Shown here: positions 3,285-43,300 of the stretch, piece by piece | Layout: every line of letters begins with the position of its first letter | Numbering within the stretch: the first letter of the stretch is position 1 | Origin: Candidatus Iainarchaeum sp. | GTDB lineage: Archaea > Iainarchaeota > Iainarchaeia > Iainarchaeales > JAFCCW01 | Length of the DNA stretch: 64,000 nucleotides | Assembly (NCBI GenBank): GCA_017609985.1 | Contig: JAFCCW010000002.1 | Span: forward strand, 590-64,589 | Direction of reading: 5' to 3' | Notes under the pieces: model-generated | Told to the model about the DNA's origin: nothing | The model's input: the letters and a program-made list of their open reading frames with translations, nothing else | The model's database searches: none | Made by a program: the position numbers and the translations under genes

Positions 3285-3572
3285 TTGTTTTAGATTGGTT
3301 TTTTTACAATCATCTGATAGCACTACTGTATTGAAGTTAATAATTTTTAGCAGTTGGAAAATCAAACCAATACTTGCTTTCAGTTAAGGGAACTGAATTA
3401 TTTTGCAGTTTTTTTCAAGAAACAGCCCTTTAAAAGCCTTTCTTATGCAATTTTTATTATACGAAAAGGATTTGATAAACTCTATTTTTTCTTAATTGAA
3501 AATTTGTCCTTCGGGAAATAGCGTTTTGCCTTTTTGCAAAAGTCTTTTTAGAGACAAAAAGGAGTTGAAAAA

Positions 3573-4676: not shown

Positions 4677-4729
4677 GCTTTGAAATTTATTAATTTTCTT
4701 ATTTTCTTTTACTGTAGTTTATTGCAAAA

Positions 4730-4924
4730 TTAGCTCATTTTAAGAGCGCTATTAAACAGGTCAGCTAACTCTTCGCATTCTGTCTGCCCTTCATGCTCTG
4801 CTACAACTCTTGTTAATTGCAATCCATCATAGTATCCTATCAGACTGCAGTGAAATTCTTCTCCGCCAAGCATTCCATTGAATTCGTCTCTTGTCTTGCA
4901 GTATCCGCTACTGTAACCAAGCAC
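4730..4924 (-). CDS. hypothetical small protein (64 aa from a GTG start; the frame is open back to 4981)
   Basis: The protein-like composition (GYCKTRDEFNGMLGGEEFHCSLIGYYDGLQLTRVVAEHEGQTECEELADLFNSALKMS) is better than that of the overlapping plus-strand frames. No family recognised and the start is uncertain. Confidence 0.3.
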   Translation of the reverse strand: MLGYSSGYCKTRDEFNGMLGGEEFHCSLIGYYDGLQLTRVVAEHEGQTECEELADLFNSALKMS

Positions 4925-5090
4925 GGTTTCAATTTCAGTTCCGCTTCCAAAAAACTCGCTGTAAGAAGTTGCAATCTTTGCTCACTCGCATTTTACGAGT
5001 GCATCATTCCATGCAAAAGACGATGCTTGTGAAGCATTTGCTTGTCTTGTTGATTCTTGTTGGTGCAAGGAAGGTCCTGACAGGATTTTT

Positions 5091-5327
5091 ATGGAGTCTC
5101 CGGGAGACCTGTTTCTTGGTACTGCAGAGCAAACAAGGGCCTGGGCAAGCTCTGCATTAATTGCAAAAAGCTTTTCTGATCAGTCATTTGTTCCAGGAGA
5201 AATAACAAAAGTTGTAAAACTGAATACTATTTTCTACAATGCTTTTGTTGAAGACGAAGAAGGAAACGAAACTGTTTACACAGTTGCTATTGACGGAACA
5301 ATCCTAAAAACAGTTTGCGGAGTTTAA
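5091..5327 (+). CDS. hypothetical small protein (78 aa)
   Basis: ATG ORF ending YNAFVEDEEGNETVYTVAIDGTILKTVCGV. The same frame is open upstream to 4965 (Cys-rich CEAFACLVDSCWCKEG) but has no canonical start codon there. Confidence 0.35.
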   Translation: MESPGDLFLGTAEQTRAWASSALIAKSFSDQSFVPGEITKVVKLNTIFYNAFVEDEEGNETVYTVAIDGTILKTVCGV

Positions 5328-5336
5328 GAAAAAAAA

Positions 5337-5411
5337 TGCCCCGGGCGGGATTCGAACCCGCGTCACAGCCTTGAGAGGGCTGGATGCTTGGCCGGGCTAC
5401 ACTACCGGGGC
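5337..5411 (-). tRNA. tRNA-Glu (anticodon CUC)
   Basis: Reverse complement: gccccgg-ta-gtgt-agcccggccaa-gcat-c-cagcc-CTCTCAA-ggctg-tgacg-cgggt-tcgaatc-ccgcccggggc-a. The cloverleaf was folded by hand. Confidence 0.88.
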
Positions 5412-5566
5412 GGTTTGATAAAATCCAATTTAAGCTTTGCTTGAATGAATTGTTAAATAGATTTACTTGAAGAAAGGTTTAAAAAAAAGCCTCAGAACTC
5501 ATAATCCAAATCATTGCCCCTGAAAGGAACTCAGTTCTCAGCCCGATCTTCATCAGCTTTTGTGTA

Positions 5567-6229
5567 TTGTGTTGTGTTTTCCTTTTAATAATAATTAGTT
5601 ATCCTTCTTGTGTGAAAAAGCCTAGAAAACCAGAACAGAAACAGGGCACAAGAGCAGATGCAAGATTGCCCAGGGTCAGGTTTTACACAAGACAGCACAC
5701 TGGCAATCCATTCAGAAGATATGAACAAGATCTTGGAATAAATGTTAATTCTTTTCGAGGCAAAACTGTGCTTGATGTTGCTTCAGGTTATTCAAATTTT
5801 GCAAAAGAATGCAGGGCAAGGGGCATAAACTGTTTTGCAATGGATTTGCCAAATGTTCTTTCAAGAATAAACAAACGCTTTGAAGACAATAATGGAAAAA
5901 AGTTTGCAGTCGCGGGCAAGGCACAAGAAATGCCCTTCAAAAGCAATTCCGTGGACTTGATTGTTTCAAGACGAGGTCTGTTTCATGTTCCTAACCTGTT
6001 CAGTATTCAGTACTGTGTAAAAGAAGCATTAAGGGTTTTGAAACCAGGGGGCGAACTTAGATTTGACCCTCCTCTTGGCATTTTAACAGAAAGCAAAGTA
6101 CGCAAAGAATTCGAAAACTGGCTTGAAAGAAACAATTTTCAAATTGAAAAGCATTATGAACGAGAGTTTCCTTACTTAGTAATTCGAAAAACAGGAAACT
6201 TTGAAAAATTGAATCAAGAGCTGAGGTAA
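5567..6229 (+). CDS. class I SAM-dependent methyltransferase
   Basis: Motif I VLDVASGYSNFA plus LKPGGELRF, typical of the Methyltransf_11 type. The start is uncertain: TTG at 5567 or GTG at 5612, with no upstream ATG. Confidence 0.75.
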   Translation: MCCVFLLIIISYPSCVKKPRKPEQKQGTRADARLPRVRFYTRQHTGNPFRRYEQDLGINVNSFRGKTVLDVASGYSNFAKECRARGINCFAMDLPNVLSRINKRFEDNNGKKFAVAGKAQEMPFKSNSVDLIVSRRGLFHVPNLFSIQYCVKEALRVLKPGGELRFDPPLGILTESKVRKEFENWLERNNFQIEKHYEREFPYLVIRKTGNFEKLNQELR

Positions 6230-6249
6230 TCATGTTAGTTATTGGTTAA

Positions 6250-7305
6250 TCAGATTAATCCTTTTGCCTTCAAAAGCTCTGCATTCAAAACAGCTGCTCC
6301 GGCAGCTCCTCTAACTGTGTTGTGTCCGAGAACAATGAACTTGTAGTCAAGCACAGGGCATTCTCTTACTCTGCCAACCACGCTTCCCATTCCTCTCTCA
6401 AGGTCCCGATCCATTCTCGGCTGTGGTCTGTCATCCTCGTCCATTACAATGATTGGCTGTGAAGGGGAGCTCGGCAAATTCAGTTCCTTTAATGGATTAA
6501 ATTTCTTCATTGCATTCTTCACATCCTCTAGTGAACCTTTTTTATCCAATTCAATATTAAGCGTTTCAAGGTGACCGTCTTTTACGTTCACTCTATTGCA
6601 TTGAGCACTTATTGCAATTTCCGTGTCCTTAAATTCCTGCCCGTTCCATTCGCCAAAAAGCTTTAACGGTTCTTCTTCAACCTTTCCTTCTTCTCCGCCA
6701 ATGAATGGAACAACATTGTCAATTATGTTCAAAGAAGCCACGCCGGGATAACCAGCTCCTGACAATGCTTGCATGCTTGTCAGGAAAATCTTGTTAATTC
6801 CAAATTCCTGGTGCAGTGGAGCAAGAGCTAAAACAAACTGAATAGTTGTGCAGTTAGGATTTGTAACAATAAATCCTTCCCAGTCTCTGTTCTTTTTCTG
6901 CACTTTGACAGAGTCAAGATGCTGAGCATTAACTTCTGGAATCAGCAAGGGAACATCTTTCTCCATGCGATGGTTTTTGGAGTTGCTGACAACAGCAAAA
7001 CCTGCTTTTGCAAATTCTTTTTCGATTGGTTCAGCTACTCCTGAGTCCAGCGCGCCGAAAGCTATTTTTCCATCAATATTTTCTGCATTGCATTCAACAA
7101 TCTTCATTTCCCTTGCATAGTCTGGAATTGAGTCAGAAACAATCCATCTTCCCCCAACAGCTTCCTCGTATGTCTTTTCCGCACTCCGCTCACTTGCTCC
7201 AAGTGCAGTGACTTCAAACCAGGGGTGGTTGTCAAGCAACTGGATAAAGCGCTGGCCAACCATTCCGGTTGCTCCAAGAACACAAACAGGAATTTTTTTA
7301 GTCAT
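6250..7305 (-). CDS. asd: aspartate-semialdehyde dehydrogenase
   Basis: N-terminal [12 protein letters not shown] Rossmann motif, active-site NPNCTTIQ, and [12 protein letters not shown]. Archaeal-type length of 351 aa. Confidence 0.9.
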
Positions 7306-7436
7306 TTTTATCTTAAAAACAATGATACGAATATTATTAAAAAACTAACTAAAAATTACGAAAAACAGATTAACAACAAGGAAAAGACTTTGTTTCCTTT
7401 AACTAAAATATTTTTCTCACTAAAAAAAGTAAAATA

Positions 7437-7542
7437 TGCCACGGGGGAGATTTGAACTCCCAACCTCTTGATTATGAGTTTCGCTCCACACAACAAAGTG
7501 TTATAGTGGTCAAGCGCTCTAACCAGGCTGAGCTACCGTGGC
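7437..7542 (-). tRNA. tRNA with CAU anticodon (elongator Met or Ile2) carrying a ~31-nt intron at a non-canonical position
   Basis: Reverse complement: gccacgg-ta-gctc-agcctggtt-agagc-g-cttga-[ccactataacactttgttgtgtggagcgaaa]-CTCATAA-tcaag-aggtt-gggag-ttcaaat-ctccc-ccgtggc. The insert lies 5' of the anticodon loop (31/32 or 32/33), not at 37/38. The anticodon stem lacks the three G-C pairs of an initiator. Confidence 0.8.
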
Positions 7543-7603
7543 ACTACTCATTTGGTTATAGCTCAAGAATTTGTCCTGTTAAATCTTTAAAAGCTTGTTC
7601 TTT

Positions 7604-8341
7604 TCAAAAAATGCTCATTATGTTCTTTATGTCTTTCAGGTCATCGTCTTCGGCAATGGATGTCTCTGCGGCAAGCCTGCTCTTAACCTCAATCTTCCTG
7701 TTATGTAGAATTATTCTGTCTGCATAGCCTATGAACAGCCCTGTTTCAAGTACGCCGGGAATATGTTTTGCCTGATAATCCAAATCGTCAAGCGAGTAAA
7801 TCTTGTCCACTTCAACGTCCACAATATAGTGCCCTGTTTCTGTCTGGTATAGCTGGCTTGACTTCTTTCCTTTCTTTCTAATCCTTGCTTTTCCAAGCGC
7901 TTCCAGCTGGTCAACTGTTTTCTTGAATCCAAACTTTGCTATTTCAAAGGGAACCCTTCCCGACAAAAACTTCACATAGTTTTTTTCTTTTGCAACAATA
8001 ATCAATTCCTCTGCGCTCTGTGCAATCATCTTGTCCCTCACAAGCGAGGAGGAATCTCTCTTAACATAGTTAAATCCAGAGTCCACCAAATCAGCAAACT
8101 CTATTGCAAGGTCTATATCTGCATCATCAATTTTTGCGCTTGGAATTTTGAGGTCTGAAAGCAGTGCAGCAATTTCCATAGATGTGGGCACAACTTTTAT
8201 TGATAACCCAGCTTCCTCCACATCAACAGCCAGCTTTTTTAGAATTTTTTCCGACAGCTCGCTTGAGCCAAAAGCAACAACATCTTTTTTGCTTATATAC
8301 TTCTCTACAAGCACATCAACTACTGTGTCATCCCACTTCAT
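7604..8341 (-). CDS. ribose-5-phosphate isomerase A-like protein (divergent)
   Basis: The layout is colinear with RpiA: VVPTS, a DxADxVD-like EFADLVD, a K(GGG)-like VKRDSSSLVRDKMIA, TETGHYIVD, and IPGVLETGLF. Several conserved positions are substituted; see the finding. Confidence 0.65.
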   Translation of the reverse strand: MKWDDTVVDVLVEKYISKKDVVAFGSSELSEKILKKLAVDVEEAGLSIKVVPTSMEIAALLSDLKIPSAKIDDADIDLAIEFADLVDSGFNYVKRDSSSLVRDKMIAQSAEELIIVAKEKNYVKFLSGRVPFEIAKFGFKKTVDQLEALGKARIRKKGKKSSQLYQTETGHYIVDVEVDKIYSLDDLDYQAKHIPGVLETGLFIGYADRIILHNRKIEVKSRLAAETSIAEDDDLKDIKNIMSIF

Positions 8342-8402
8342 TCAAATCAATTATATTACTGCTTTTGAATATCTTTTATTGTTTCAGCAGATAATTCCAT
8401 AA

Positions 8403-8474
8403 AGCCCAAGGGGGGAGTCGAACCCCCGACCTCGTCCTTACCAAGGACGTGCTCTACCACTGAGCCACTTGGGC
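8403..8474 (-). tRNA. tRNA-Thr (anticodon GGU)
   Basis: Reverse complement: gcccaag-tg-gctc-agtggt-agagc-a-cgtcc-TTGGTAA-ggacg-aggtc-ggggg-ttcgact-ccccc-cttgggc-t. Confidence 0.9.
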
Positions 8475-8529
8475 GTTAAAACAATTTCATTCAAAAAAAG
8501 CTTTTAAGGGAATAGTTTTTCTCGGAACT

Positions 8530-9756
8530 TTATTGCTTAAGAAACTCACTCAATTTTTTTAAAGAAACACTCTTCTGCTTCCCAGTTTTTAAGTCCTTCA
8601 CAGTAATTTCTTTTTTCTTCAGTTCGTCTTCGCCAAGTATTCCCACAAGCTGGATTCCCTTTCTGTCAGCATAGGCAATGTTTTTGCTTATTCCTCTTCC
8701 AATCAAATCAGTTTCAACATTAATTCCTTTGCTTCTCAGTTCTTCAGCAATCCCAATTGCTTCTTTGCCTGCCTTGTCACCCAAAGGGATAATAAAAATC
8801 TTCAAACTGCTTTCAAGCTTTTTTCCTTGAAGTACATCCACCAGCCGGTCAACCCCAAAAGAAATTCCAATAGCTGGAGTTGCTTGCCCGCCATAAGCTT
8901 CAATCAATTTATCATATCTTCCGCCTCCGCCAATGCTTGGGCCGTTCTCTGAAGCAATCTCAAAAACAGTTCCAGTGTAGTACTCTAACCCTCTTGCAAG
9001 TGTCAAGTCAAGCTCAACAAATTTATTCAGCTTCTGTTCTTTCAACAGTGAAAAAAGCTCTTCAATTTCTTCTGCTCCTCTGCAGTTTGACAGGCATGAT
9101 GCATTATTTTTCTTCACTGTTTGCATGAATTCAATCGGAATTTTTTCCTTCTTTAATTCTTCTTCAACTCCTTCCCACCCAATCTTGTCCAGCTTGTCAA
9201 TTGCCCTGAAAGCATTCTTTACCTTGTCTTTTTTTACTCCACTTTCAAGAGCAATGTCTTCCAGCAGCTTTCTGTTGTTAACCCTTATCTTAAATTCAAT
9301 TCCAAGTTCCTGCAGGATTCTCACAGAAATTGCGAGCAGTTCAAATTCTGCTTCAATTCCACTTACTCCAAACACATCAATATCCGCCTGAGTGAATTCT
9401 CTGTATCTCTGCTTCTGCGGTCTGTCATATCTGTACACGCGTCCAATTTGGTATCTCTTAAACGGTCTTCCTAACTGCTGGTTTTCTGCAACAACTCGCG
9501 CAGTCGGCACAGTCAAGTCAAACCTTAAACCAAGCTCTCTGCCAGACTTGTCCTTAAAATAGTATATTTCGTCCTTGATTGCTTCTCCTCCGCTTCCCTT
9601 CTTTGCAAGCAGTTTGAATTCCTCTACTGCCGGAGTCTGCAGGGGAACAAAGCCATATGCCTTGAACCATTTCTCACAAACCTGTTCCACCCAGCGCTTT
9701 AGCTCTGCTTTTTCTGGGAGAAAATCCCTCATTCCGCGAACCGTACTGTACTTCAT
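8530..9756 (-). CDS. hisS: histidine--tRNA ligase
   Basis: RGMRDFLP at the N-terminus, class II motif 2 YRYDRPQKQRYREFTQ, and motif 3 GGGRYD. GGTGAT lies upstream of the ATG. Confidence 0.95.
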   Translation of the reverse strand: MKYSTVRGMRDFLPEKAELKRWVEQVCEKWFKAYGFVPLQTPAVEEFKLLAKKGSGGEAIKDEIYYFKDKSGRELGLRFDLTVPTARVVAENQQLGRPFKRYQIGRVYRYDRPQKQRYREFTQADIDVFGVSGIEAEFELLAISVRILQELGIEFKIRVNNRKLLEDIALESGVKKDKVKNAFRAIDKLDKIGWEGVEEELKKEKIPIEFMQTVKKNNASCLSNCRGAEEIEELFSLLKEQKLNKFVELDLTLARGLEYYTGTVFEIASENGPSIGGGGRYDKLIEAYGGQATPAIGISFGVDRLVDVLQGKKLESSLKIFIIPLGDKAGKEAIGIAEELRSKGINVETDLIGRGISKNIAYADRKGIQLVGILGEDELKKKEITVKDLKTGKQKSVSLKKLSEFLKQ

Positions 9757-9767
9757 TCTATCACCAA

Positions 9768-9838
9768 TACTGTGGAGCGGGCTTGAACCGCTATTCTTCC
9801 CTTCACAGGAGAAGCGTCTGACATTGACTTACCACAGT
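9768..9838 (-). tRNA. tRNA-His-like cloverleaf (anticodon GUG) 11 nt upstream of hisS; an atypical or pseudo tRNA, or a leader mimic
   Basis: Reverse complement: (t)actgtgg-ta-agtc-aatgtca-gacg-c-ttctc-CTGTGAA-gggaa-gaat-agcgg-ttcaagc-ccgct-ccacagt-a. The T-arm and anticodon arm are good. The acceptor stem extends to 8 bp through U-1:A73. The D-stem has only 3 pairs and the D-loop lacks G18G19. Confidence 0.45.
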
Positions 9839-9873
9839 AAATAGAAGGGAAAATGGAATAAAAGGATTTGTTT

Positions 9874-9990
9874 TTAGCAATCTCTTTTATTTTTGATTCC
9901 TTGTTCAATAAAAAGAGCAATTTCTCTAGGCGTATAATAGCCATGAAGTGATTCCCCTTCTGTATTCTTGTTTATATTCAATTTATTCAA
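9874..9990 (-). CDS. candidate small ORF (38 aa)
   Basis: A strong GGAGGTG Shine-Dalgarno sequence (9996-10002, minus strand) lies 5 nt before a TTG start. Translation: MNKLNINKNTEGESLHGYYTPREIALFIEQGIKNKRDC. It is too short for the ORF track and has no homology evidence. Confidence 0.25.
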   Translation of the reverse strand: MNKLNINKNTEGESLHGYYTPREIALFIEQGIKNKRDC

Positions 9991-10143
9991 TTTAACACCT
10001 CCGTGTTTTCTCTATTTTTATTTCTATTTTTGAAATTTTCAGAATTAGTCAGGCAAAGCAATTCATCAATACTGTGGATGAAGGCATTCACCATTGTTTA
10101 ACTGAAAAATATCTGTTTTTTTGCTGCCTTTTTGGAAGCGAGT

Positions 10144-10211
10144 CCCCTGCAGGGGGCGAGTGCGGGCAAAATCTTCGATTTTGCTGCACCACAAAATCCC
10201 GCGGATTTTGT
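10144..10211. repeat. cluster of three short palindromes/hairpins directly downstream of tRNA-His
   Basis: CCCCTGCAGGGG (10144-10155). GCAAAATC-ttc-GATTTTGC (10166-10184). ACAAAATCC-cgc-GGATTTTGT (10191-10211). The last two share the core AAAATC/GATTTT. Confidence 0.5.
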
Positions 10212-10232
10212 TCGTGCTCCGAAAAAGGCAAA

Positions 10233-10347
10233 GGCCGGCGCCGGGAATCGGACCCGGCTCCCAGGATAACTGCAACGCTTTCTTTTCTGTGAACTCTTTG
10301 AAAAAGTTCCCACAGTCCTGGATCTTAACCACTAGACCACGCCAGCC
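10233..10347 (-). tRNA. tRNA-His (anticodon GUG) with encoded G-1, C73 and a canonical 37/38 intron (~42 nt, 10268-10309)
   Basis: Reverse complement: g-gctggcg-tg-gtct-agtggtta-agat-c-cagga-CTGTGG[intron]A-tcctg-ggag-ccggg-tccgatt-cccgg-cgccggc-c. G-1 opposite C73 is the HisRS identity hallmark. Confidence 0.85.
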
Positions 10348-10555
10348 ATTTATGTACTTATATGTATAGCTTTTGTTTAAATTCCATTCTCCTAAAAAAT
10401 TGTATTTATTTGTATATTTATAAGAAGCAGTATTGCTTTTATTCGTCTTCTGTTTCTTCTTCGCCACAACCGCCACATCCTGGACAGCCGTGAAGTAACT
10501 CACCTATCATAACATAATCTATGGACTGGTTTGTTTAAATACTTTGCCTTGGGGG

Positions 10556-10717
10556 CTACAGAAGCCTGTGAATAGGCTTTTTTGTCTTTTTGTGCTTTGC
10601 TTGAAATCCAGGTCCTGTTTTTCGTCTTATTTCCTGACCTTCAATAACTTTATAGTCTCGCGGCCTAACTTTTCTTGCTGGAGCTCCGCCAACTTTTTTT
10701 CTTCGAACTTGAGACAT
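10556..10717 (-). CDS. candidate small basic protein (53 aa)
   Basis: ATG ORF below the track cutoff: MSQVRRKKVGGAPARKVRPRDYKVIEGQEIRRKTGPGFQAKHKKTKKPIHRLL. It is very basic, with a composition like a ribosomal or nucleic-acid-binding protein. Family not recognised. Confidence 0.4.
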   Translation of the reverse strand: MSQVRRKKVGGAPARKVRPRDYKVIEGQEIRRKTGPGFQAKHKKTKKPIHRLL

Positions 10718-10802
10718 TGTTAAATTAGGTTTTTATCATTTAAATTCCTTTCTCAATGCAAAGAATTAATAAATCAAAAAAACCAGTTAATAGCGTGATT
10801 TA

Positions 10803-11240
10803 ATGCCTGCAAGACCTCGTCCTTCATATAGAAGACCAAGGGAAAACATTCCCGCAAAGCTTTTAGGCGAACGTGTAAAAATGGGTTTGCCTGGAATTGC
10901 AAAAGGCATTGCTACAGGCAGTGTTCCGCAAGGCAGGTATGGTCAGAGAGGCAAAAGAAAACCAACTGGCCCTTCAATAGGTATTGGGGATTATGTTCGT
11001 GCACTCTTTGACTGGGATCATATGCGAAGAAAGCGAGAGCAGTGGAGATTTGAACAACAACAGGCAAGAAGGCAGCAGCAAGCGCAAGCTCAACAACAAC
11101 AAGCAACCCAGATAGGCATGGATATGATGCAACCAAACAAGCCTTCAACTGATTCTGGAATGCAGGGTGCGGCAAGACGGGCATCAGCAAGAGAAAAACA
11201 AGGGCGAGGGCGATATGTAAGGGGAAGGCCAGTGCAGTGA
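10803..11240 (+). CDS. hypothetical basic protein with a Gln-rich low-complexity core
   Basis: 145-aa ORF, R/K-rich at both ends, with QQQARRQQQAQAQQQQATQ in the middle. Visibly higher GC than its surroundings. Confidence 0.5.
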   Translation: MPARPRPSYRRPRENIPAKLLGERVKMGLPGIAKGIATGSVPQGRYGQRGKRKPTGPSIGIGDYVRALFDWDHMRRKREQWRFEQQQARRQQQAQAQQQQATQIGMDMMQPNKPSTDSGMQGAARRASAREKQGRGRYVRGRPVQ

Positions 11241-11267
11241 TTTTACTTATTTAATAGGGTGATTTTT

Positions 11268-11483
11268 ATGGGTTTGATGGATTCAATTTTTGGAATCAAG
11301 TCAGAGAAGGCAAAATCAAAAATTGTCTTGGCTGCAAGGCGAATAGAGGGAAAAATGCACTTGTTTGAAATTTCTCGAGACCGAGCTGGACAAGGCAATG
11401 CAGTAATCAAGCACAGAATCAAAAGAACAGGAGAACAATATTATAAAGAAATTTCCAGTAAAAAAATTAACAGCAAAAACTAG
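11268..11483 (+). CDS. hypothetical small protein
   Basis: The track ORF starts at GTG 11259. I prefer ATG 11268 (MGLMDSIFG...) because GGGTGA lies 5 nt upstream. Confidence 0.45.
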   Translation: MGLMDSIFGIKSEKAKSKIVLAARRIEGKMHLFEISRDRAGQGNAVIKHRIKRTGEQYYKEISSKKINSKN

Positions 11484-12142
11484 TCAATCATTTTTTCAAC
11501 TTTTTCTGAAATTTCTCTCTTTGCAAGAACAAGAATTTTATCTTTTTCATCAATTAATGTTTCTTTAGAGGGAATAACAAGATTTCCCTGATGATACAGT
11601 GCAACAATCGCAGAGCCAGTTGGAAGTTCAATTTCGCCTATTTTTTTTCCTAATATTTTGCTTTTTTTCTTTATTGCGATTTCCATTATTTCTGCTTCGC
11701 CTCTTGAAATAAACGCAAGGTCTAGCACGCCAGGTTTTGTAATCAATTCTTCAATATAGCCGGCGGCTGCTGCCTCTGGATGAATTACAATATCTATTCC
11801 CAGCTTTTTCAAAACCTTTTCATCATACTCTATTCTTGAAATTCTCGCAGCAACCTGTTTTGCTCCAAGCTCTTTAGCTAGCAGGCTCACAACCATGTTT
11901 GTTTCATCCTGTCCTGTGAGCGCGACGACTGCATCAGCTTCTTTAATGTTTGCTTTTTCAAGCACTGCTGGATCGGTTCCGTCCCCAACTGTTGCAACAA
12001 TATCAAGATCTCTCGCAATTCTCCTGCACTTTTCCTCTGCTCTGTCCACTATCACAACATCGTGTTCTTCTTCAAGCAAAAGCTGTGAAAGATAGTAACC
12101 CAGGTTTCCGGCTCCAATAATTACAATATACATTTTTTTCAC
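11480..12142 (-). CDS. trkA: Trk/Ktr potassium uptake system, NAD-binding regulatory subunit
   Basis: IIGAGNLGYYL...VVIVD Rossmann (TrkA-N) domain followed by a TrkA-C-like domain. Located directly downstream of trkH. Confidence 0.9.
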   Translation of the reverse strand: MKKMYIVIIGAGNLGYYLSQLLLEEEHDVVIVDRAEEKCRRIARDLDIVATVGDGTDPAVLEKANIKEADAVVALTGQDETNMVVSLLAKELGAKQVAARISRIEYDEKVLKKLGIDIVIHPEAAAAGYIEELITKPGVLDLAFISRGEAEIMEIAIKKKSKILGKKIGEIELPTGSAIVALYHQGNLVIPSKETLIDEKDKILVLAKREISEKVEKMID

Positions 12143-12171
12143 CTTTGACTAATATAATATTTTCCAAATAT

Positions 12172-13638
12172 TTAACGCTTTCCCCTTAGAGAAAGCAATA
12201 ATCCTAATGAGGTAAGAACAGGAATTATTTCAAGGCGTCCAATCCACATATTAAATATAAGCATTATTTCGATTCCCAAAGGCATTCCAGCCTGTGATAT
12301 TCCATTTCCAATTCCAACATTGCTCTGTGCACTTGTAACTTCAAGAAGTGCGTTTCCAATATCATATCCATAAGCTGTAACCACAAGCGTGCCCACAAAA
12401 ATAAACACAGCATACAAGAGAATAAATTGTTGAACCTGCTTTACTGTTTCTTTTCCAATTTCTTGCTCTTCAAATCTTCTGGAAAAAAAGCTGTTTTCCG
12501 GAAGAATTGCTGATTTAATTCTCCAAATTACTGACTTTCCAAATATAAGAAAACGAGAAAGTTTTATTCCTCCAGCAGTGCTTCCTGCACTTCCTCCAAT
12601 AAACATTGCTGCGAGAAAAACAAGTTTTATGAAATCATCCCATAAAAAAACCTGTGATTCGCTTGCAAGTGAAAATCCGCCACCAGTCAAAGAAGAAACC
12701 ATGTGAAAAAAAGCAGCTTTTAATCCAATAAAATTCGAGCCATAAAAATGCAAAAATTTTGGAGCAACTAAAAGTGCGCCAAGAACAGCAATAAACACAA
12801 GTGCTTTTACTTCAGCATTTTTAAACAAAACATCAGTTCTTCTTTTCTTCAAAACAGCATAATGGATTGAAAAAGAAATCGCTCCAAAAAACATCAATAA
12901 AATAAGAACCCAGTCAATCGCTGGATTGTGCCCTGCTGTCAGTCCAGTCAGTGAAAGATCCATTCCAGTAGTGCTGAGTGCAGACATTGAATAATTGACT
13001 GCAGAGAACAGGTTCATTCCTGCTGCAAAAAGTAATCCTATGCCAAGCAAGGTCAATCCAATGTAAATTCCCCAAATTTCTTTAACTGTATTCTTAATGT
13101 TTGGTTTAATATGTTCCTGATTTCCCTCTGCACTAATCCATTTAGTTGTCTTTGAATAATTGCGCAGGATGCCGGTTAGAGCCATCACAACAATTCCAAT
13201 CCCCCCAATCCATGAAATGAAAGAGCGCCAGAACAAGAGAGAGGCAGGAGCAGAATTAATTACTGGTTGCAGTACAGTAAGCCCTGTTGTAGTAATTGCA
13301 GAAACTGATTCAAAAAAAGCATCAATAAATGGAATTCCCAGAATTAGCGTAAACGGAATTGCAGCAATAGCTGGATAGAGAAGCCAGACAAGTGAAGCAG
13401 TAAGAAAAGTATGTTTGAAATCAGTTTTTGTTTCTGTGTAAAAAATTTTGGTGAGTGCAAACCCTCCAACAAATGCAATTATTCCCGCTAGCGCATAAAA
13501 AGCCATGTTTTTCAATGGCTCAAAAAACAAGAGAACTGTTATTATTGGAACAAGAAAACTTGCAGCAGAATATTTTATGATAAACCCAGTGTCTCTTAAA
13601 GCAACCTTTAAGTCGTCCATTCCAAGAGGTATTAGCAT
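12172..13638 (-). CDS. trkH: Trk/Ktr potassium transporter membrane subunit
   Basis: Polytopic 488-aa protein with four pore-loop glycine motifs (ITTTGLT, LSTTGMD, SLTGGGFS, SNVGIGNG). Confidence 0.9.
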   Translation of the reverse strand: MLIPLGMDDLKVALRDTGFIIKYSAASFLVPIITVLLFFEPLKNMAFYALAGIIAFVGGFALTKIFYTETKTDFKHTFLTASLVWLLYPAIAAIPFTLILGIPFIDAFFESVSAITTTGLTVLQPVINSAPASLLFWRSFISWIGGIGIVVMALTGILRNYSKTTKWISAEGNQEHIKPNIKNTVKEIWGIYIGLTLLGIGLLFAAGMNLFSAVNYSMSALSTTGMDLSLTGLTAGHNPAIDWVLILLMFFGAISFSIHYAVLKKRRTDVLFKNAEVKALVFIAVLGALLVAPKFLHFYGSNFIGLKAAFFHMVSSLTGGGFSLASESQVFLWDDFIKLVFLAAMFIGGSAGSTAGGIKLSRFLIFGKSVIWRIKSAILPENSFFSRRFEEQEIGKETVKQVQQFILLYAVFIFVGTLVVTAYGYDIGNALLEVTSAQSNVGIGNGISQAGMPLGIEIMLIFNMWIGRLEIIPVLTSLGLLLSLRGKR

Positions 13639-24631: not shown

Positions 24632-25048
24632 TCAGCCCCCTGGCCCCCTTCTCATTATCTGCGATTGCTTCATTCTTCTTGCAACATCCGCACCACTGTT
24701 AACTGGAGACTTCCATCTTGGAGAGTCGCCCCCACCTGGTTTTCCATGGATAATCTCTTCCGGTCCTTGTCCCCCCTGCGGCTGTCCGCTTGGCATAACA
24801 AAGAAGAAATCTATTAACACTCCGCTGACTCCAAACAATAGCAATAGGTATAATACAAACAAGCCCCCAAAAAATGCCCAAAATTCAAACAATATAAACC
24901 AGCCGACTCCAGCCATTGCAACAACTGCCATTGGACTTGTGCCCAGGTGATTTTTCATAAAAGAAGCAATTGTCAGAAAAGCAAAAATCTTTATTACTAT
25001 ATTTGCGTCTGCGAGGAGTTCTCCAATAAACAAAAGTGAGTAAATCAT
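24632..25048 (-). CDS. small polytopic membrane protein (~138 aa, 3-4 TM, G/P-rich basic tail)
   Basis: The ATG at 25048 lies 4 nt after the TGA of the 2329-aa gene; the track's TTG at 25060 would overlap that gene. The tail reads PSGQPQGGQGPEEIIHGKPGGGDSPRW. Confidence 0.6.
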   Translation of the reverse strand: MIYSLLFIGELLADANIVIKIFAFLTIASFMKNHLGTSPMAVVAMAGVGWFILFEFWAFFGGLFVLYLLLLFGVSGVLIDFFFVMPSGQPQGGQGPEEIIHGKPGGGDSPRWKSPVNSGADVARRMKQSQIMRRGPGG

Positions 25049-25052
25049 AGCT

Positions 25053-28000
25053 TCACCCAATACAGGTTTCTCCGCCTAAAAGCCCTTCTTCAAAAGCTTC
25101 AATGCTTGTGTTGTTTCCCTCTGCACTATACAGTGTTTCTGGATTCCACCAGAAAACAGTTCTTGTTCCAGAATTTGTAAGGCAAACCCGCTCTTCTTTC
25201 ACAAGACTGAAAACTCGGCTAATAGAATCAATGCTTGAACTCTTGCTGTTGTGAGCCATTCCACTAATTCCCTCTAATTCAATTGCTGGTGCTGCTGGCT
25301 CATCAGCTGTAATGAAAAGAGTTGAGTCACTCAAAGATTTAAGAGAATAATTTTTTCCAACAGGAGTAAAGAAAACTGTTTTAAGGAACACATTTCCTTC
25401 TTTCTCAGCATTGGCCCAGTCAAGAGCATAAGCTGTTTGCCAGTTTTGAAGCTGGTCTTCTGCTGTTGCTGCTCTGTCAGGAGTAAGGCTAAACACAGCA
25501 GAAGATGGCATTCCGCTGAAATCAAAGCAAAGCCCTGCCCCACTCCAAAAATTCATCATAGTTCCCTTGCTTTGTGGAACTCCTGCTTCAACAAGCTGAT
25601 AGAATGCAGAGAACGCTTGTTCTGTTTTTTCTCCTGAAATTTTTAACAAAACTGGAGTTGCCTTGTTTGGAGAAAACTTGATTCTTGGCGTGTCTGTTGA
25701 TGCACCGCCAGTTACTTCAAGAAGTTTTCCTCTTGAAGAAACCACTGAATTCATTGAAGAAATATCCTCTTCCAGGCTTGTTTCAACACTGAAAACAGGA
25801 TTGCTTCCTTGAATTTCTTCTGTTTCCACTAAGTCGTTAAGTGAAGCAATCTTGATTGGTTTTCCATCACCCTCATAATTTATTCCATAACCCTGTCTTC
25901 CGTTTCCTGATTCAACACCAACTCTTCCGTTGAATGGCAGATAATAAAACGGAGAATTGAATTCTGGGTTCCCAATCTTGTGCAATGCAATTTTTACATC
26001 AGCGTTTGGACTCCCTCCACTAACAAGCTGCCAATCTTCTCCAAACTCCCCTTCAATCGAAACCCGGTAAATTCCTGCACCAGGCAATGTTTTTCCCTGC
26101 CCTCCAAGTAATCCAAAACTAAGTCTTCCTTCACTGAAAAACTTGTCTATTGAATTTCCTGAAAAAAAGTCTGGTGTTCCAAGAAGCATATTGTCTTTGT
26201 AATAACTTGCAAAGTCTTGCTGGAAATCCATTGAATAACCATCTTTCATCAAAGCAGCATTAAATTTAAGCAGGCTTTCCAATGCTTCAATGTCTGGTAT
26301 TTCAGAAGTCCATTCAATTATTCCCGTGCTTCTTCTTTCCGCATCCTCTATAAAGTAAGCAATAGCTGGTCTTCCATCAATAAGCTTAGTTGAAAAAGGC
26401 ATCCAGCATTCTTCATCCTCCACAAATGGAGTAAGCACTGGTGTTGTAAACGGACTTGCACTATCAACTCCCTGAGCAGAAGCAATACTTATTCTCATAA
26501 CATAAAAGCTATTAATTTCAGGAATGCTTGGAAGAGAACAGCTTCCTGTTTTAGAGCTTCCATTAGCAATTGCTGAAACAACTGTACTGCATTTTTTCTG
26601 AGCAGAACTTAAATTAATGCCGTCAGGAGAACTGATTATTTCTGCTGTAACAGTCGCTGTTGCTGTTTCGCCTGACTTATTTTCAACTTCAAAGTTTACC
26701 TGTAGGTCTTGTCCAATAAAACCATGGCTTGCATTTTTCAGCCCGACTTTTCCTGGAGAAACATTTCTCTCCAAGTCATCTTCTGCATCTTCAAATTCCT
26801 GCCTTTGCGCGCTTCTAGGGCTTGCAGGACATTCAAGAGCAGTTGAATTTCTCTCAAGCCATTCATGCAGTGCATTAAGTCTGTAAGAAAGCATTATGCT
26901 AAACTGTGTCGCATCACAGTAAACAAAGTCTCCGTCTTCTGTTTCTTCACAAGAGCTTACTCCAATTCCGTTTCCGCCCCAGTTCCAATTATAGTTTACT
27001 TTTGGAAGAGCATTGCTTCCAGTAATTCCTACTGCTGTGTCTGAAACACATTTCTCTGCTCTCAGATAGCTGGGTGGGAGCTGAAACTCGTTTTGCTTTG
27101 TCACAAATTTCATGTGAATCTTTTCAGTATGCTGTTTTACTTCCTTGTCAGGCACGTTCATTTGCCCAAAATCGTTGTTGAGCAGATAACCGCCTGGAAT
27201 AACAGTAGGATCATCGTGGAAGTGTCTGTTTGCAGTAATTGTCATCACAGAATAGGAAGCTGCTTCCTCTTCAATTCCAGTATTCATAAAACTGATTATT
27301 GCTGTCTGATAATCCCATTTTCCAAAAACTGATGGCTGATAGTCTGTGCCGTTGTCCCAACCCCATTTAGCATTAATCTTGTTAATTCCTGTTTGAATGC
27401 TTTCAGCATCTTCAATCAAGTTAATTACTGTTGCCTGCATTGGCTCTGAATGGCGCTGGTCACAGGGGTCGTCTCCAAAACCAAACAAGCTAAGTAATAC
27501 CATGATTGCGCCGGCTATAATTCCAACAGGTCCCGCGATAAGAGCAGTCATTGTCTGATAGCCAAGTCCTGCCGCCATAATTTTTGAAGTAAAGTCTTCT
27601 CCGCTTCTGTTTGACATAGTCTGCCACTGGCAAACACTTGCATTAACCTGAACTTCTTCTGAAAGACCAGTGTTCTTTAGCATAACCTGTGATTCGCTTC
27701 CCTCTCCAATTAATTCAATCGGGCCATATCTGTCAAGCGAGAAAAACTTGCTTGCCACTGGCTCTACAATAACATCAACTGTTCCAATTTTTGCCCATCC
27801 TGTTCCTGGAGCTCTTGCGTGGACCGTGATTCCATATATTCCCGGAATGTGAAGTCTTTGCACTAGCACTTCTCTGCTTTGCTGTGTTAAAGTGAAATCT
27901 TTTGGAAGCAGGTTTACTCCTCCCTCGGTTCCGCCTGCACAATCTTTGTCGTCCTTGCAAAGTTTTATTGTTACTGGAATTGGACCACAGTCGCTTGTGT

Positions 28001-32087: not shown

Positions 32088-35000
32088 CTATTTTCCAGTG
32101 ATGCAGTTGTTTAGAGCATTGTCTACATTGTCTTGCATTGATTCAAGAACTGGCTTTGGATTCCAAAAGAACATTGAGTGCATGCTGTTGTCATAACCGC
32201 TTACACAAACTTTTCCTTGTTTGACAAGTTCTAGAATGCGCTCGACATTTATTTCGTCTCCACCAGCATAATTGAAGGCTTGTCCTCTGACACCGTTCAA
32301 TAGGATGTTTTCTCCAACTGTTTCATCAGTAATCAGTGTCATTGAATCGCTTCCAGCAATTCTCTTCATTGAAGAGCTTTTTCCCTGTGGAGTAAACACA
32401 ACGCTTTCAACATAAATATTTCCGCTTCTCACTGGATTGCACCATTCAAGACCGAATGAAACAAGTGATGTTCCGCCAATCAAAGCACATTCTGCATCAA
32501 TTGCGTGCATGTCGTATCTGTCATCAAATGCATCAACTATTGGCTGGTCAAAGAAGTCTCTGCACTGTACTCCAACACCAGACCAAGGTAACAAGCCTCT
32601 TGAAGAGCCAGTCTGTGGTTCTCCTCCAACATCAATTGAATAAAATCCAAAAGCATCCTCTGCTTTTTCATGTTGAACATTCATCATCACTGGAGTTGCA
32701 TAGCTTGGACTCAGAGTCAACCTTGTTTCTGCAGCGCTTGTGTCAGTGATTAATCTTCTCACATCAAGCACAATTCCTCTCTTTTCATTGTTGAGCTTTG
32801 TGAAACTGTCTTCAAATCCTCCAAGCAGTTTTCCTGCAGCTGGATTGCTTCCAATAATTTCGCTTGTAATAACTCTCTGCATTGGATCACTGTTAATCTC
32901 AATTGGCTCTTGTGCTTCCTGCACATAATTAATTCCATATCTCTGCCTTCCATTATCTGAATCAATTCCAATTCTTCCATTGAATGGCAGATAATAAAAT
33001 GGAGAGTCTGGTTTTGGAGCCTTTTTTCTGAACAGGTTAACTGTTATCTTAGCCTGCATTTCCCCTCCGTTGAAGAGCTTCCAGTCGCTTACTCCCTCGT
33101 CAAATTCTATTTCAATTTTTGCCTCATAAACTCCTGCTTCTGCATAAGCTCCCTGGTTCACAAGAGGATAACTAAAAGAAAATCTGTTCTCTGAATCAAA
33201 GTATTTTCCAATTCCTTCTTCACCATCAGTATACCATGTTGGGGTGCCAAAGAATGAATTATTTATGCTGAACTCGTGGAAATCATGCCTTAAATCATCA
33301 GAATAACCATCTCTGACAAGCAATGCACTAAAACCATTTGCATAGGATAAGACCTGCTCTCTTGTTCCTGAAGGGAATGATACTCCTTCGTGCTCGCTTG
33401 CTTCTACAAAGTCCTGCAATCTGCTTAGCTTAAATGGCTCGCATTGAGTAATTCCGCTTGAACTAAAGTTTAGGTTGAGTGAAATTGAGTTATTCTCTGC
33501 CTCGTTGTCCTCACAATGCTCTTCGCTTGTGCAAGTTGACAAATTTGGAGTTGCTCTAGCGTTCAACACAAAATTTTCTGAGCCAGTTCCCTGTCTTTCC
33601 AGAACACATTCAACAGTCTTTGACTGTTTTGAAACTCTTTCAGCTGTTCCAGTGCAAGAATCAACAATGTTTCCGCTTGAGTTCTTGAGCTCCATTATGT
33701 ATCCAACATCAACCGAGCCCTGAATATTTGTTCCAATCGAAAGCACTGCCTTGACATTCTGTCCGTCCTTGCTCCAGGACATTCTAGTAATTCCAATATC
33801 CAGTTCGCTTTCGTGCAAGTCTTGGCTTTCCGAACTAAATTGTGCTCCAAGGCTTGGGCAGTAAAGTGAAGAACCATACTGATCAAGGAAATCCTTTACT
33901 TTCTTGAGTTTCTTCATTAAAGAAATACTGAACTGTGTTGCATCGCAATAAACATGGTCTTTGTTAAGCTCGTCGCATGCATCCTCTGGAATCTCTGACC
34001 AGTCCCATGCAAACACAATTTTTGGAGCAGCATCCTCTCCCGTGTTTCCAACAAGCTCTCCAAGCTGGCAGTTAATTCTTTCAACTGCTGGGCAAGGGAA
34101 CGTGTCCGGACCACATTCCTGTGCATGATATGAATTAAACTGGAGATTGAATTTTTCCTTGAAATCCTCTGTTTTGTCCTCGTCAATTGCAAGCTCTTTT
34201 GGAAGAGTTTTTCCATAACTTCTCTTGTAATCAAGTCTCTCTCCCGCTACTTTGAAAATTCTGAACAAAGGCTTTGAAGGATTGTCTTGAGTAATTCCTG
34301 TTTCGTTAATGAATGCAATTTCTCGGCTTCTCTCTTTCAGGCTCATATCTCCGCTTGCTTCCCCCCCAATTTGAATTCCAACATAGTTTTCCTTTGCTGC
34401 GCTAACAGAATACTGTTCGAGGTCTCGAACAGAGATATCCTCGTCTTCAACACTCTCCAAACCAGACTCTTTCAAAACAATCATTTCCTCGATTGAAAGA
34501 TCAGCTGCTTCAACAGGCCTTTCCATTGCAATAACTCCTTGTTTGCTGTAAGCATCAGTTGCATGATAGAGAACACCCCACAGTCCCCAAGTCCAAGGGT
34601 CTGGCTCGCCAAGGATAGTTGAACCCAATCCCATGAAAGCTCCGCCAAGTCCGCCGAGCAATCCTCCGCCGCTGCCTCCTCCGAGAATGCTGCCAGAGTC
34701 TCCTCCTCCGAAGAAGTTGAGATACGCTGTTGTTGGAATTTCGCCAAGAGCTTTTGCCTGAAGTGTGTTAACACATTTTTTTGTTGTATAATCACATTTT
34801 CCTGATTCACAATTATCATGATTGGCACAGGGTTCTCCAATTTTGGATTTTTCTTTTTCCAAAGGATTAGGCAATCCAACACCCGAGCTTGGTGCAACTT
34901 CTGCTCCTGCAACCGGTGTTCCTTCCATTCCAAGAAGTATGTTTTGAACTTCGTTTTCAAGATTGTTTATAAGTGTAAGTTGAGTTCCTTGAAGTTGTGC

Positions 35001-40316: not shown

Positions 40317-43300
40317 TCATTCTTCTTCTTTTTTTGGTTCGACTTCTTCTGCTAACTCTTCAGCTGTTTTTCCAATGTTTTCAAAATCAAGGTTTTCTCT
40401 TGCCCAAACAAGACTTATTCTTGAAGATGATGTGTCCTTTATGCACACTCTTCTGTCCTTTACCATATCCAAGTAGGTTTTTATTGACTGGTATTTTGTT
40501 GAATCCTTTATCTTCAAGCTTGTGTCTCCTTTTCTATAACCTGGAGTGAACTCTTTTGGTACTGGCATCTTGCCCATCTGCCTTGCAGTAATGTTTGACT
40601 TTCCCTGCGTGCAGTAAACTGAAAGCAAATACTCTTTGTTGTATGGAAGCAGTGCAACTGTGTTGTAGGTTTGTATTCCTTCAATTTCTTTTACAAATCC
40701 ATAATGGCTTTCTCCAATTTCTTCACAAATGTTTGCTGCTTCTTTTTGTGAAACAAGCTTATCAGTGATTGTGTCACTTGCTGACTTCCATTCAAATAAG
40801 TGTGCTGAACCATAACTTGGCTCTTTTGATGCAGCATCCAAAATTTCGTAAAGCAGTCCCTCGCTTCCAGTTTCTTCTTCTCCGTATCTGTCAGCTATTT
40901 CTAGCTTGAGTGCAACTGGATAAGATGGATTGTAAGTAATCTGTTTGCTTTCAACATGGAATATCATGCCTGAATTAGCATTTGCATAGTCTTTGTTGAC
41001 TTCTCCTAGATAGTTTGCAAGAGCTCCTGTTCCTTTGAATACAGCTTGTTTTTCTGCTTCTGAAGAGTAATTCAATAGCATTTCACTTATGTCTGCTTCT
41101 GAGCTTACAGCAACACCATATCCTTGTCTTGTGCCGTCTGCTAAACCAAGCTTTCCGTCAAAAGGCATCTTGAAGAAGATGTTCTTTGCATAAGCTGAAT
41201 CAATTTCTGAAAGAGCCTGCTCTCTTGAAAGATTAATTTCTATCTCTCTGTTTTCCCAGTTGTAGTTTACCTTAACTGAGTATTTTCCTGCTGAGTGCTT
41301 TCCAGTATTTTTCTCATCAACACTGAAATCCCAGTTTGTGACTCCGCCAACAAGCAATCTTTCTGCAAATCCAGTGCTGTCAAAGTCTGACTTGAAGTCT
41401 TCACTGAAACCGTCTTCCATCAAATAAGATTCAAATGAGATATCCTGATAGTAAACTTTTTCAAGCTCTCCTGTGTCAAGTCCCTGCCTGTTCTTTCCGT
41501 TCTTGAGAATAATCTCTATTTCCCCATCAGTCATTTCTTCTTTTTCTCTTATTCCGTTCACAAACCTGATGTTCTTGAGCAGGGTGTTCATGAATTCTCC
41601 GGTTGCAGTAATCTTGGTTGAACCATTCTTTTCAAGCAATCCATCAATATAGCATGTTTCAATATCTGTTTCACAGCTTCCAATGCTTTTGTCTGCTTTG
41701 ATTCTCTTCATTGCTGATTCTAACTGGTTGTGGAAGTTCTTCCATTCTCCGTAAGCCATTACATAGCCGATTCCTTCAACTTCCTTTGCACCCATTTTGT
41801 AGAGCTTTGGTTCGCTGTTATAAAATTTCTCAGTATCTGAATTCTTTTCAACAACTGCAACAATATTCTTTGCTTTTCCTCTTTCCTCTAGCTTGCCAAA
41901 CACTTGTGACATCTGAGTAATTATTGTTTTTATGTCTGAGCTTCCCTCGGGAATATCAATAATTTCTGCAAGACTCTTTGCAGTCTCATAGTCTTCAATA
42001 TTGAGTTTTTCTCCCTCCAGCACTCCGCTCTCGCTTTCAAAGAACACCAGAGTCTTGTTGTTCTTGTTGTCAAATATCTCAAACTGTTCCTTTGCCCATC
42101 TGTAAATATTCTCTGTGTTTTTGTAATCATCAAGGCAGCTGTCTTCGCTTTCATCTCCTTTTTCACATAATGCTCTCTTCAGCATCTTTGCGTGCTCTGT
42201 GTCTTTTATAACTGAGTCAATCTTTTCAATATAGGTTTTGATTGAGTCAACTTTTTTGTCAAGTGTCAGGGTAAACTGTGCTGCATCACAAAAGTTCGTT
42301 GCTCCTTCTTCTTCAATAAATCCTTCTTTTGGTTCATCACAAGCACTTTTTATAATATTGGATGAATCCCAGTCAAATAATAGTCTGTCAAAGCCATATT
42401 CATTGAATGCTCCTGTTCCAGTTTTTCCTCCTTCTCCGCAGTCAAAGGAAGCTGTTCCAATGCTTGTTTGAATTTGTCTCTGGCAGTCTCTCCACATTTT
42501 GTTAATCTGCTCGTCAGTGAATCCCTCGTTTGCAGCTTCCTGTGAAAACACGTCTTTTTCAAGATTCTTCTCAACACATTCTGCAATTAAGTCTCTTTCC
42601 TTCTGTGAATAGTATGGCTCGTCTTCACAGGTTTTCAAAAAGTCTGCATCAACCTGTGTCAAGTCAATTCCCTCGTTTAACACCCAAACTTTTACTGGAA
42701 TATTAACGCGTTGTGTTCCAACATTGTGTGTTGCTCTTGTGAGGTCTGATGACAGTCTTGTTTCAATTCTTGCACACATCATTGTCATGCTACTTCTGTC
42801 AATAGTCAGCTTTACATTGTGTCCATTGTCAATAACTGAAAATCCTAACATTACTCCACTTTTTTCATGAGTCCAGGTTACTGGTCTCAGGTTTGCAAGC
42901 TTGTCTAATGCTCCACAGAAATTTGGTGAAATTTTCATAACCTTGTTTGGGGTTGGAATAAACTCGTAGTCTCCGATTTCAAATTCTGTGTCTGGCACAA
43001 AACCCCATTTGTCTTCTTCTCCAAAGCCTTTTGCCATCCAGTACTCTACAACATTCAGTGCTCCTGTGTCAATGCAGTCCTGGAATTGAGTAATTGCTGG
43101 ATTGCCCCCTTCATATGGTTCAAGATATGGTCCTGCAAGGAACAAGTCCTCTATAACCACAGGAATATTTGTTGTGTTCTTTTGCTTGAAAGAATCATAA
43201 TAATTTACTTTTGCTGTTCCTCTTGCCTGAACTCTAAAATAAGCTTCTTGTGCATAAGCTCTTAGCTGTCCAATCTGAGTAAATGTTTTTCCCTTAAGCT

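Follow-up and report, generated by a model that had tools for sequence, protein, structure and literature searches.

The window analysed here, a stretch of 64,000 nucleotides (nt) from Candidatus Iainarchaeum sp. (assembly GCA_017609985.1, contig JAFCCW010000002.1, positions 590 to 64,589; coordinates below are those of the window unless a contig is named), belongs to a genome of 1.16 Mb in 37 contigs. Archaeal informational genes in the window and the source names of its homologues agree with a DPANN archaeon of the Iainarchaeota/Diapherotrites (AR10) lineage. It carries, side by side on the minus strand, four intact open reading frames (ORFs) for proteins of 2329, 2515, 2663 and 3374 amino acids (aa), here called GP2329, GP2515, GP2663 and GP3374. 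Each of these giants opens with a strong N-terminal transmembrane helix, and a Pfam scan places CarboxypepD_reg and Ig-like domains within ~1000 aa of the start in all four. Over the first ~1050-1400 aa, which we term the stalk, the four proteins are homologous (22-26% identity), and it is the distal ends that differ, as the original prediction, made from the letters of the window, had proposed. GP3374, a true paralog over its first ~1050 aa, ends in NlpC/P60, Amidase_3 and glucosaminidase domains, and relatives of it carry SLT domains. GP2329, GP2515 and GP2663 end in a conserved C-terminal module, which is the subject of this study and constitutes a new domain family within a known kind of protein. 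Overall, ~40 kb (3.5%) of the ~1.2-Mb genome is devoted to five giant-type loci.

Recurrent motifs near the C-termini had been taken to mark such a module, and the alignment of the four proteins, pairwise and with profiles, bears this out: the motifs are real and colinear in the paralogs, and residue positions, BLASTP and a family profile agree on a module homologous in GP2329, GP2515 and GP2663. The pattern [YF]CDA occurs at residues 1708, 1896 and 2006 of these three proteins (nt 26921, 33950 and 42293) and at residue 1560 of GP3374 (nt 55778). In the three module proteins PF[ND]G[RK] follows 328, 321 and 376 aa later, at residues 2036, 2217 and 2382, then [RK]VC[LVI] at 2285, 2475 and 2620, and finally a tryptophan motif that reads FWWNP, FFWNP and LVWA, respectively. 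By BLASTP the C-terminal regions of GP2329 and GP2515 share 30.7% identity over 729 columns (E 1e-73), and the match of the GP2663 region is weak (23% identity, E 7e-9). A family hidden Markov model (HMM) of 736 positions, built from 68 sequences, recognises GP2329 with E 1.6e-242, GP2515 with E 2e-201 and GP2663 with E 9e-29 (HMM positions 65-712); in the profile search of representatives GP2663 reaches E 2.7e-141 over residues 1855-2663. Taking as members those proteins in which the HMM matches over most of its 736 positions and up to the C-terminus, GP2329, GP2515 and GP2663 belong to the family; GP3374, with no match to the HMM, does not. The colinear signature comprises a C..C-x10-YCDATQF helix, KDGYSxDFxxDF, PFYYLPF(N/D)G with GRQGYG, YATPV, WxGAGxCxDF, VC...FWWNP and a terminal Cys. 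It is complete in GP2329 and GP2515, and in GP2663 degenerate yet recognisable (FCDAAQF, EDGFSEDFKSDF, MPFDGK, RQGYG, RVCI...LVWA).

On the minus strand, the module occupies 25056..27470 in GP2329 (residues 1525-2329), 32091..34403 in GP2515 (residues ~1745-2515) and, in its divergent form, 40320..42746 in GP2663 (residues ~1855-2663). It is made up, in order, of a beta subdomain, a Cys-rich connector, a long helix opening with YCDATQF, an insertion site and a core of 457 aa. The YCDATQFSI motif of GP2329 (residues 1708-1716, 26895..26921) stands at the start of the long predicted helix, which in the AlphaFold2 model takes up model residues 187-208, that is, GP2329 residues 1711-1732; its counterparts are YCDATQF at 33930-33950 in GP2515 and FCDAAQF at 42273-42293 in GP2663. 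The insertion site that follows is empty in some homologues (P0007-type) and occupied by an Ig-like beta-sandwich in both GP2329 and GP2515; the insert of GP2329 (residues ~1750-1872, 26427..26795) has beta strands at model residues 242-346 and contains the Cys pair C1818/C1835. At the same position GP2663 carries a Lys/Glu-rich helical insert of ~190 aa (residues ~2013-2207, window 41690-42270). The site after the YCDATQF helix is a hot spot for domain insertion. The core of GP2329, or part B (residues 1873-2329, 25056..26426), combines a mixed alpha/beta N-terminal subdomain, the PFNG/GRQGYG loop and a beta-rich C-terminal part ending VC...FWWNP...C-I-G. The loop (SPFYYLPFNGRVGVESGNGRQGYGINY, residues 2030-2056, 25875..25955) is largely coil in the model and is found again at 32925-33005 in GP2515 and, as MPFDGK...RQGYG, at ~41106-41177 in GP2663. 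Within the last motif of GP2329 (RVCLTNSGTRTVFWWNP, residues 2285-2301, 25140..25190), C2287, W2299 and N2300 are conserved at 99%, 98% and 96%.

Neither a known domain family nor a known fold explaining the module emerged from our searches. The CarboxypepD_reg and Ig-like Pfam matches of the giants are confined to the N-terminal stalk; on the three modules Pfam returns zero families at E ≤ 10 and NCBIfam zero at E ≤ 1, on 16 family members Pfam gives only singleton noise within the module, and a profile search of the PDB with the module core finds nothing at E ≤ 10. The literature that we searched holds no description of the module. AlphaFold2 models the whole module with a predicted local distance difference test (pLDDT) score of 79.3 and a predicted template-modelling score (pTM) of 0.66, and the 457-aa core with a pLDDT of 90.3 and a pTM of 0.84. 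For membership in a solved or viral fold we required a Foldseek E ≤ 1e-3 together with a meaningful template-modelling (TM) score, and no match of this quality was found in either database: with the core, the best E is 0.068 in the PDB (probability ≤ 0.23, query-normalised TM-score ≤ 0.11) and 0.0048 in BFVD (probability 0.10, query-normalised TM-score ≤ 0.13). With the 805-aa model Foldseek gives local Ig/FnIII-like matches (probability ~1.0) and otherwise noise; we infer from the model that the former would belong to the insert of GP2329. Judging from the predicted structure, the module is possibly a new fold. Two known kinds of protein were considered and set aside. A class II fusogen or archaeal fusexin, which would show a beta fold of three domains with a fusion loop and, after it, a stem and a C-terminal transmembrane helix, is one, since the match to Fsx1 (7p4l) has E 2e-3 but a TM-score of 0.10-0.16 and a root-mean-square deviation (rmsd) of ~31 Å, flavivirus E matches with the core alone have a probability of 0.01-0.03, and no C-terminal transmembrane helix is present (the end reads ...GETCIG). 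The other is a PGF-CTERM/archaeosortase substrate, which would end in a PGF motif, a transmembrane helix and a basic tail: the C-termini (...GLLGGETCIG, ...ALNNCITGK and ...EEVEPKKEEE) show no terminal hydrophobic helix.

The family is large, and its distribution narrow. A word-indexed search retrieves 67 giant relatives, annotated at best as 'carboxypeptidase regulatory-like domain-containing protein' of Diapherotrites, and an exhaustive profile search 850 representatives of 50%-identity clusters at E ≤ 1e-3, 550 of them at E ≤ 1e-30. The module sits at the very end of its protein, a median of 2 residues before the stop (193 proteins). It is present in 179 of the 201 sampled genomes of the phylum, all 179 belonging to a single order (~182 genomes of that order), in 1-8 copies per module-bearing genome, and is absent from all 17 listed genomes that belong to other orders. 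The present genome has four copies, the fourth on contig C18. Titles of module-bearing records name Ca. Iainarchaeum, Diapherotrites and archaeon GW2011_AR10. The family is thus specific to one order of Iainarchaeota (Diapherotrites, AR10 lineage). A few records bear titles such as Falkowbacteria, Chloroflexi, Thaumarchaeota or Micrarchaeota (L011, L012, L016, L019 and similar); these are probably mislabelled bins or contigs misbinned from Iainarchaeota.

Conservation was measured over 183 family members. YCDATQFSI is the most conserved 9-residue block (mean 0.91), followed by PFYYLPFDG, FSPSYATPV and, in fourth place, GRQGYG, with FWWNP and VCV also high. C1709, D1710 and Q1713 in YCDATQFSI and P2036, R2049 and Y2052 in the PFNG/GRQGYG loop are conserved at 100%. 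Conservation of 85% or more is reached by many Trp, Tyr and Phe as well as Asp, Arg, Asn and Gln residues, but by no His, Glu, Ser or Lys; among the former are six Asp (87-100%), three of which cluster in KDGYSxDFxxDF. Furthermore, there are eight conserved Cys, of which seven reach 91-100% and the C-terminal one a lower value, with two more in the Ig-like insert. C2172 and the C-terminal Cys occur together in 163 members, are both missing in 14 and are discordant in 6 (Fisher P 1e-15); for the insert pair C1818/C1835 the corresponding numbers are 100, 77 and 6. Co-variation of this kind is characteristic of disulfide-forming Cys pairs.

The module also exists apart from the giants. On contig C18 of this genome, three proteins are encoded by overlapping genes: one of 1674 aa made up of anchor and stalk, a membrane protein of 234 aa that has a signal peptide and, at its C-terminus, a transmembrane helix, and a 674-aa module protein with a canonical signal peptide of its own (KKLLFLFLISLLVFSAPASA followed by DE; ...LLFLFLISLLVFSAPASA followed by DE). 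In this split locus (L001, G000 contig C18:36000-54000, locus positions 5713-13416) the 234-aa gene overlaps the stalk gene by 4 nt, and the arrangement would seem to reflect natural fission, or a state preceding fusion, and not frameshifts. Neither the 234-aa protein nor the N-terminal 230 aa of the stand-alone form nor the tail of the split stalk shows similarity to any of 210 family proteins. In another archaeon (L002, JGI metagenome 3300029258 contig, 1-10825) an array includes module proteins of 768 and 807 aa, in which a transmembrane anchor or lipobox-like signal is followed by Ig/PKD domains and then by the module. The same array holds two more copies, both broken into a pair of ORFs (589+308 aa and 406+417 aa), either inside the module core or shortly before it; frameshifted pseudogenes and assembly errors are possible explanations. 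P0140 and P0194 are likewise stand-alone forms with their own signal peptides; two ~985-aa representatives begin with such peptides. Stand-alone forms span ~670-990 aa. The module is, therefore, an autonomous extracellular unit carried on supports of very different length, a conclusion that follows from its C-terminal position, the co-varying Cys pairs and the stand-alone proteins with signal peptides.

Just upstream of the module, many members have a hydrophobic segment. In GP2329 it is Gly/Ala-rich with a central Gly-Pro (residues ~1485-1520, 27483..27590, minus strand; Kyte-Doolittle 2.38 over 19 aa), and comparable segments lie at ~34565-34725 in GP2515 and ~53825-53965 in GP3374. The hydrophobic stretches of GP2329 and GP3374, ~35-45 aa with a central Pro, are of hairpin length; that such an internal hairpin represents a fused transmembrane helix plus signal peptide is speculation on our part. 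Among 157 family members the pre-module segment is transmembrane-like in 48, weak and Gly-rich (Gly-zipper-like) in 59 and absent in 50.

The branching pattern of a tree of 185 modules bears on the age of the paralogs. GP2515 belongs to a clade of 55 sequences (support 0.997), GP2329 to a separate one of ~122 (support 0.946), and GP2663 forms a long branch. For each copy the nearest neighbours come from other genomes, at tree distances of 1.4-1.8, compared with 3.1-6.0 to the copies of its own genome; the paralogs are thus ancient. Two module-bearing giant genes often lie in tandem on the same strand, ~7-7.5 kb apart (e.g., G005:C5, G011:C5, G086:C42 and G093:C45), and the recurrence of such pairs in many genomes of the order indicates that the tandem arrangement is conserved.

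A near-identical stretch of 37 nt shared by two of the paralogs had been put down to strong purifying selection or local gene conversion. In effect, 34 of the 37 nt are identical between GP2329 (25919..25955 in register, 2 nt away from where the original prediction had set it) and GP2515 (32969..33005), with a longest exact match of 20 nt; the strings first printed were 35 nt long, 32 of them identical. Among the 1288 ungapped 12-codon windows compared between GP2329 and GP2515, that of the stretch has the highest similarity (33/36 identical, vs a mean of 44.5% with a standard deviation of 12.6%). It encodes SPFYYLPFNGR, whose 11 residues are the longest identical peptide that the two proteins share. 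Nine of the 11 codons are identical, vs 5.0-5.4 expected (P = 0.015-0.023, uncorrected and for a window picked post hoc as the best of 1288). The similarity is clearly beyond chance at the amino-acid level and only marginally so at the codon level. Between GP2329 and GP2515 identical residues use the same codon in 45.5% of cases, which equals the prediction from codon usage. Synonymous sites are therefore saturated and, at 29% amino-acid identity, the ratio of nonsynonymous to synonymous substitution rates is uninformative for this reason. Purifying selection on the PFNG motif was correctly proposed, as the second rank of PFYYLPFDG attests, and the stretch is explained as the coding sequence of the longest invariant peptide of two old paralogs, under purifying selection at the protein level. 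Against this stands the codon match, somewhat above expectation (P ~0.02), behind which may lie a very short, old conversion tract. Such a tract, or selection on the nucleotide sequence itself and not on the protein, would fit that excess and the 20-nt exact match, but we consider it very improbable. Besides the post hoc choice of the window, identity drops to background directly beyond the invariant 11-residue peptide, no more than 4 of 10 codons agree in VYCDATQFSI, a run just as conserved, and the two paralogs sit in different, well-supported old clades. Moreover, GP2663, the fourth copy of this genome and copies in another archaeon write the same motif with different codons. Local gene conversion is thus unsupported.

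GP3374 deserves separate comment, since its PFNGR part had been thought replaced by a helical region plus hydrolases, in a modular swap of effector ends. The outline stands, there being no HMM-detectable module in GP3374, but the detail needs qualifying, given a weak profile link to the N-terminal half of the module. When a GP3374-type profile of 17 proteins is compared with the module profile by hhalign, two colinear segments align with a probability of 12-17%: the helix DC..GYCDA..FLA.KI (P 0.0015), and F.AYL.D / GCG.Y.V.I / NFLPiD against FNAYLIKDGYS / aG.Y.V.I / YYLPFdG (P 0.0024). Reversed controls gave P 0.25-0.46, but one of the 20 column-shuffled controls came close to the observed score. 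The possible remnant comprises residues ~1555-1740 of GP3374 (DCSKGYCDA helix ... FYAYQQLD ... GCGRYNLEI ... NFLPIDSGY; 55236..55793, minus strand). On the strength of these profiles we lean slightly toward GP3374 keeping a degenerate N-terminal half of the module, LPxD loop included. This would suggest that only the beta-rich C-terminal ~280 aa were replaced, by other domains, a hydrophobic hairpin, a helical region and the hydrolases.

What might the module do? We favour, with a probability of roughly 0.55, that it is an undescribed, autonomous extracellular domain of ~800 aa acting as the distal head of an N-terminally anchored giant, most likely in ligand binding. The N-terminus anchors the giant in the membrane, and ~1500 aa of Ig-like or CarboxypepD_reg-type repeats form the stalk between anchor and module; this layout would make the module the distal 'head' of a surface fibre, most likely binding a ligand carried by a partner cell or present on some surface. 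The invariant aromatic, Asp, Arg, Asn and Gln residues of the YCDATQF helix, the KDGYSxDFxxDF helix and the PFNG/GRQGYG loop could represent a conserved core or the binding site, with paralogs and the variable insert supplying specificity. The existence of several old paralogs and of a variable insert fits such a diversified specificity. Ligand or host binding by the head is judged most likely from its architecture and from the make-up of its conserved residues. Several points weigh against this proposal. A domain recognising variable targets would not usually be as strongly conserved as this core, in which ~60 positions reach 85% or more, and the short stand-alone forms indicate that the long stalk is not required. 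A relative of the fold may exist among predicted cellular structures (AlphaFold DB), the Foldseek searches having covered the PDB and BFVD. Finally, a transmembrane-like segment precedes the module in about one-third of members and, if it crossed the membrane once, the module would be cytoplasmic; the paired Cys and the stand-alone forms with signal peptides disfavour this location.

That the module is instead an enzyme, e.g., a glycan- or envelope-degrading effector delivered by the stalk to a host or prey and a counterpart of the peptidoglycan hydrolases of GP3374, seems unlikely to us. The shared stalk of GP3374, with its hydrolase domains and the SLT domains of its relatives, is what would be expected of such an effector, and so are the six conserved Asp with their cluster in KDGYSxDFxxDF; this cluster, however, resembles a cation site at least as much as a catalytic one, and sequence and fold searches show no similarity to any hydrolase. 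The lack of conserved Glu, His, Ser or Lys, together with the dominance of aromatic residues and Asp, Arg, Asn and Gln, fits a binding site (or a cation site at KDGYSxDFxxDF) better than a classical hydrolase centre. We give similarly low odds to a self-assembly or docking domain, which would oligomerise the fibres or dock fibres and stand-alone forms on the cell's own envelope, on the stalks or on the neighbouring complex of small membrane proteins, with no foreign target involved. Diversified targets would account better for the several old, divergent paralogs per genome and the variable insert. Nevertheless, the core is very strongly conserved across the order, the anchor-less secreted forms need a binding partner to stay on the cell, the genes for stalk, 234-aa membrane protein and module are adjacent and overlapping in the split locus, and small membrane protein genes sit directly after GP2329. 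More doubtful still is a membrane-inserting or fusogenic device, formed by the module and the preceding Gly/Ala-rich hairpin, that would open a connection to a host cell. The hydrophobic or glycine-zipper-like segment upstream in about two-thirds of members, the hairpin-length stretches with central Pro in GP2329 and GP3374 and the weak matches that Foldseek reports, to flavivirus E and to the archaeal fusexin Fsx1 (the latter with E 2e-3 and probability 0.35-0.5), can be read in this way. Yet these matches have TM-scores of 0.05-0.16 and an rmsd of ~30 Å, falling to a probability of at most 0.03 with the core alone, one-third of members are without the hydrophobic segment, and the stand-alone forms carry ordinary signal peptides. 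An equally tentative scenario, the boldest that we would put forward, has head and hairpin attach to and breach the host envelope, with a new fold serving to connect the two cells in a DPANN symbiosis, the paralogs setting the host range and GP3374 cutting the wall.

Other genes of the window touch these subjects. In the stop region of GP2329, the first small membrane-protein ORF (24632-25060) overlaps by 8 nt (25053-25060), which suggests translational coupling of the two. Between the giant genes lies a 599-aa Cys-rich protein (48472-50271, minus strand) with the sequence 'KLGYCDAGYCNP', whose GYCDA motif is like that of GP3374. The module HMM matches neither this ORF nor those of 151, 704, 197 and 501 aa in the window.

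Comparison with known systems places the domain more precisely. Like the murein-hydrolase-bearing giant surface proteins of DPANN archaea, GP3374 among them, the giants with the module combine an N-terminal anchor, a CarboxypepD_reg/Ig-like stalk of more than 1000 aa and a functional C-terminal domain; unlike them, the module has no hydrolase domain or Pfam match, and beyond the stalk there is only the weak, partial profile link. The SPEARE proteins of Nanohaloarchaeota, also very large surface proteins of a DPANN archaeon, were reportedly described by Hamm and colleagues in 2019 as combining serine protease, adhesion and restriction-endonuclease domains, with a proposed role in host contact. 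None of these domains was detected in the four giants, which have no sequence relationship to SPEARE proteins. Among bacterial giant fibrillar adhesins, the RTX adhesins (MpIBP, LapA) and SiiE have a long repetitive Ig-like stalk and a distal ligand-binding region, and are secreted by way of a C-terminal type I secretion system signal, with the N-terminus retained in the outer-membrane pore. The logic of a stalk plus a distal binding region is the same here, whereas the polarity is opposite and the head domain unrelated; the Pfam scan detects no RTX repeats in the four giants. Polymorphic toxins of the CdiA type have a huge stalk, hypervariable C-terminal ends that follow a conserved demarcation motif, and paired immunity genes, and different ends on homologous stalks, the module in three giants and hydrolases in GP3374, recall them. 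A CdiA/Rhs-like toxin was rejected for the module, which is conserved throughout the order and among the most conserved parts of its proteins, with no toxin family detected.

To our knowledge, no member of the Iainarchaeota has been cultured and none has a known host. In this context, a domain kept in 3-8 copies in nearly every genome of the order and matching no known family or fold is a prime candidate for defining the interaction of these cells with their environment. The natural stand-alone forms with signal peptides (670-990 aa) offer a handle for expression, for structure determination and as bait for a ligand or host. A new fold, if true, would add a family to the catalogue of protein domains, and the finding would gain greater significance should the head turn out to serve Iainarchaeota in contact with a host.

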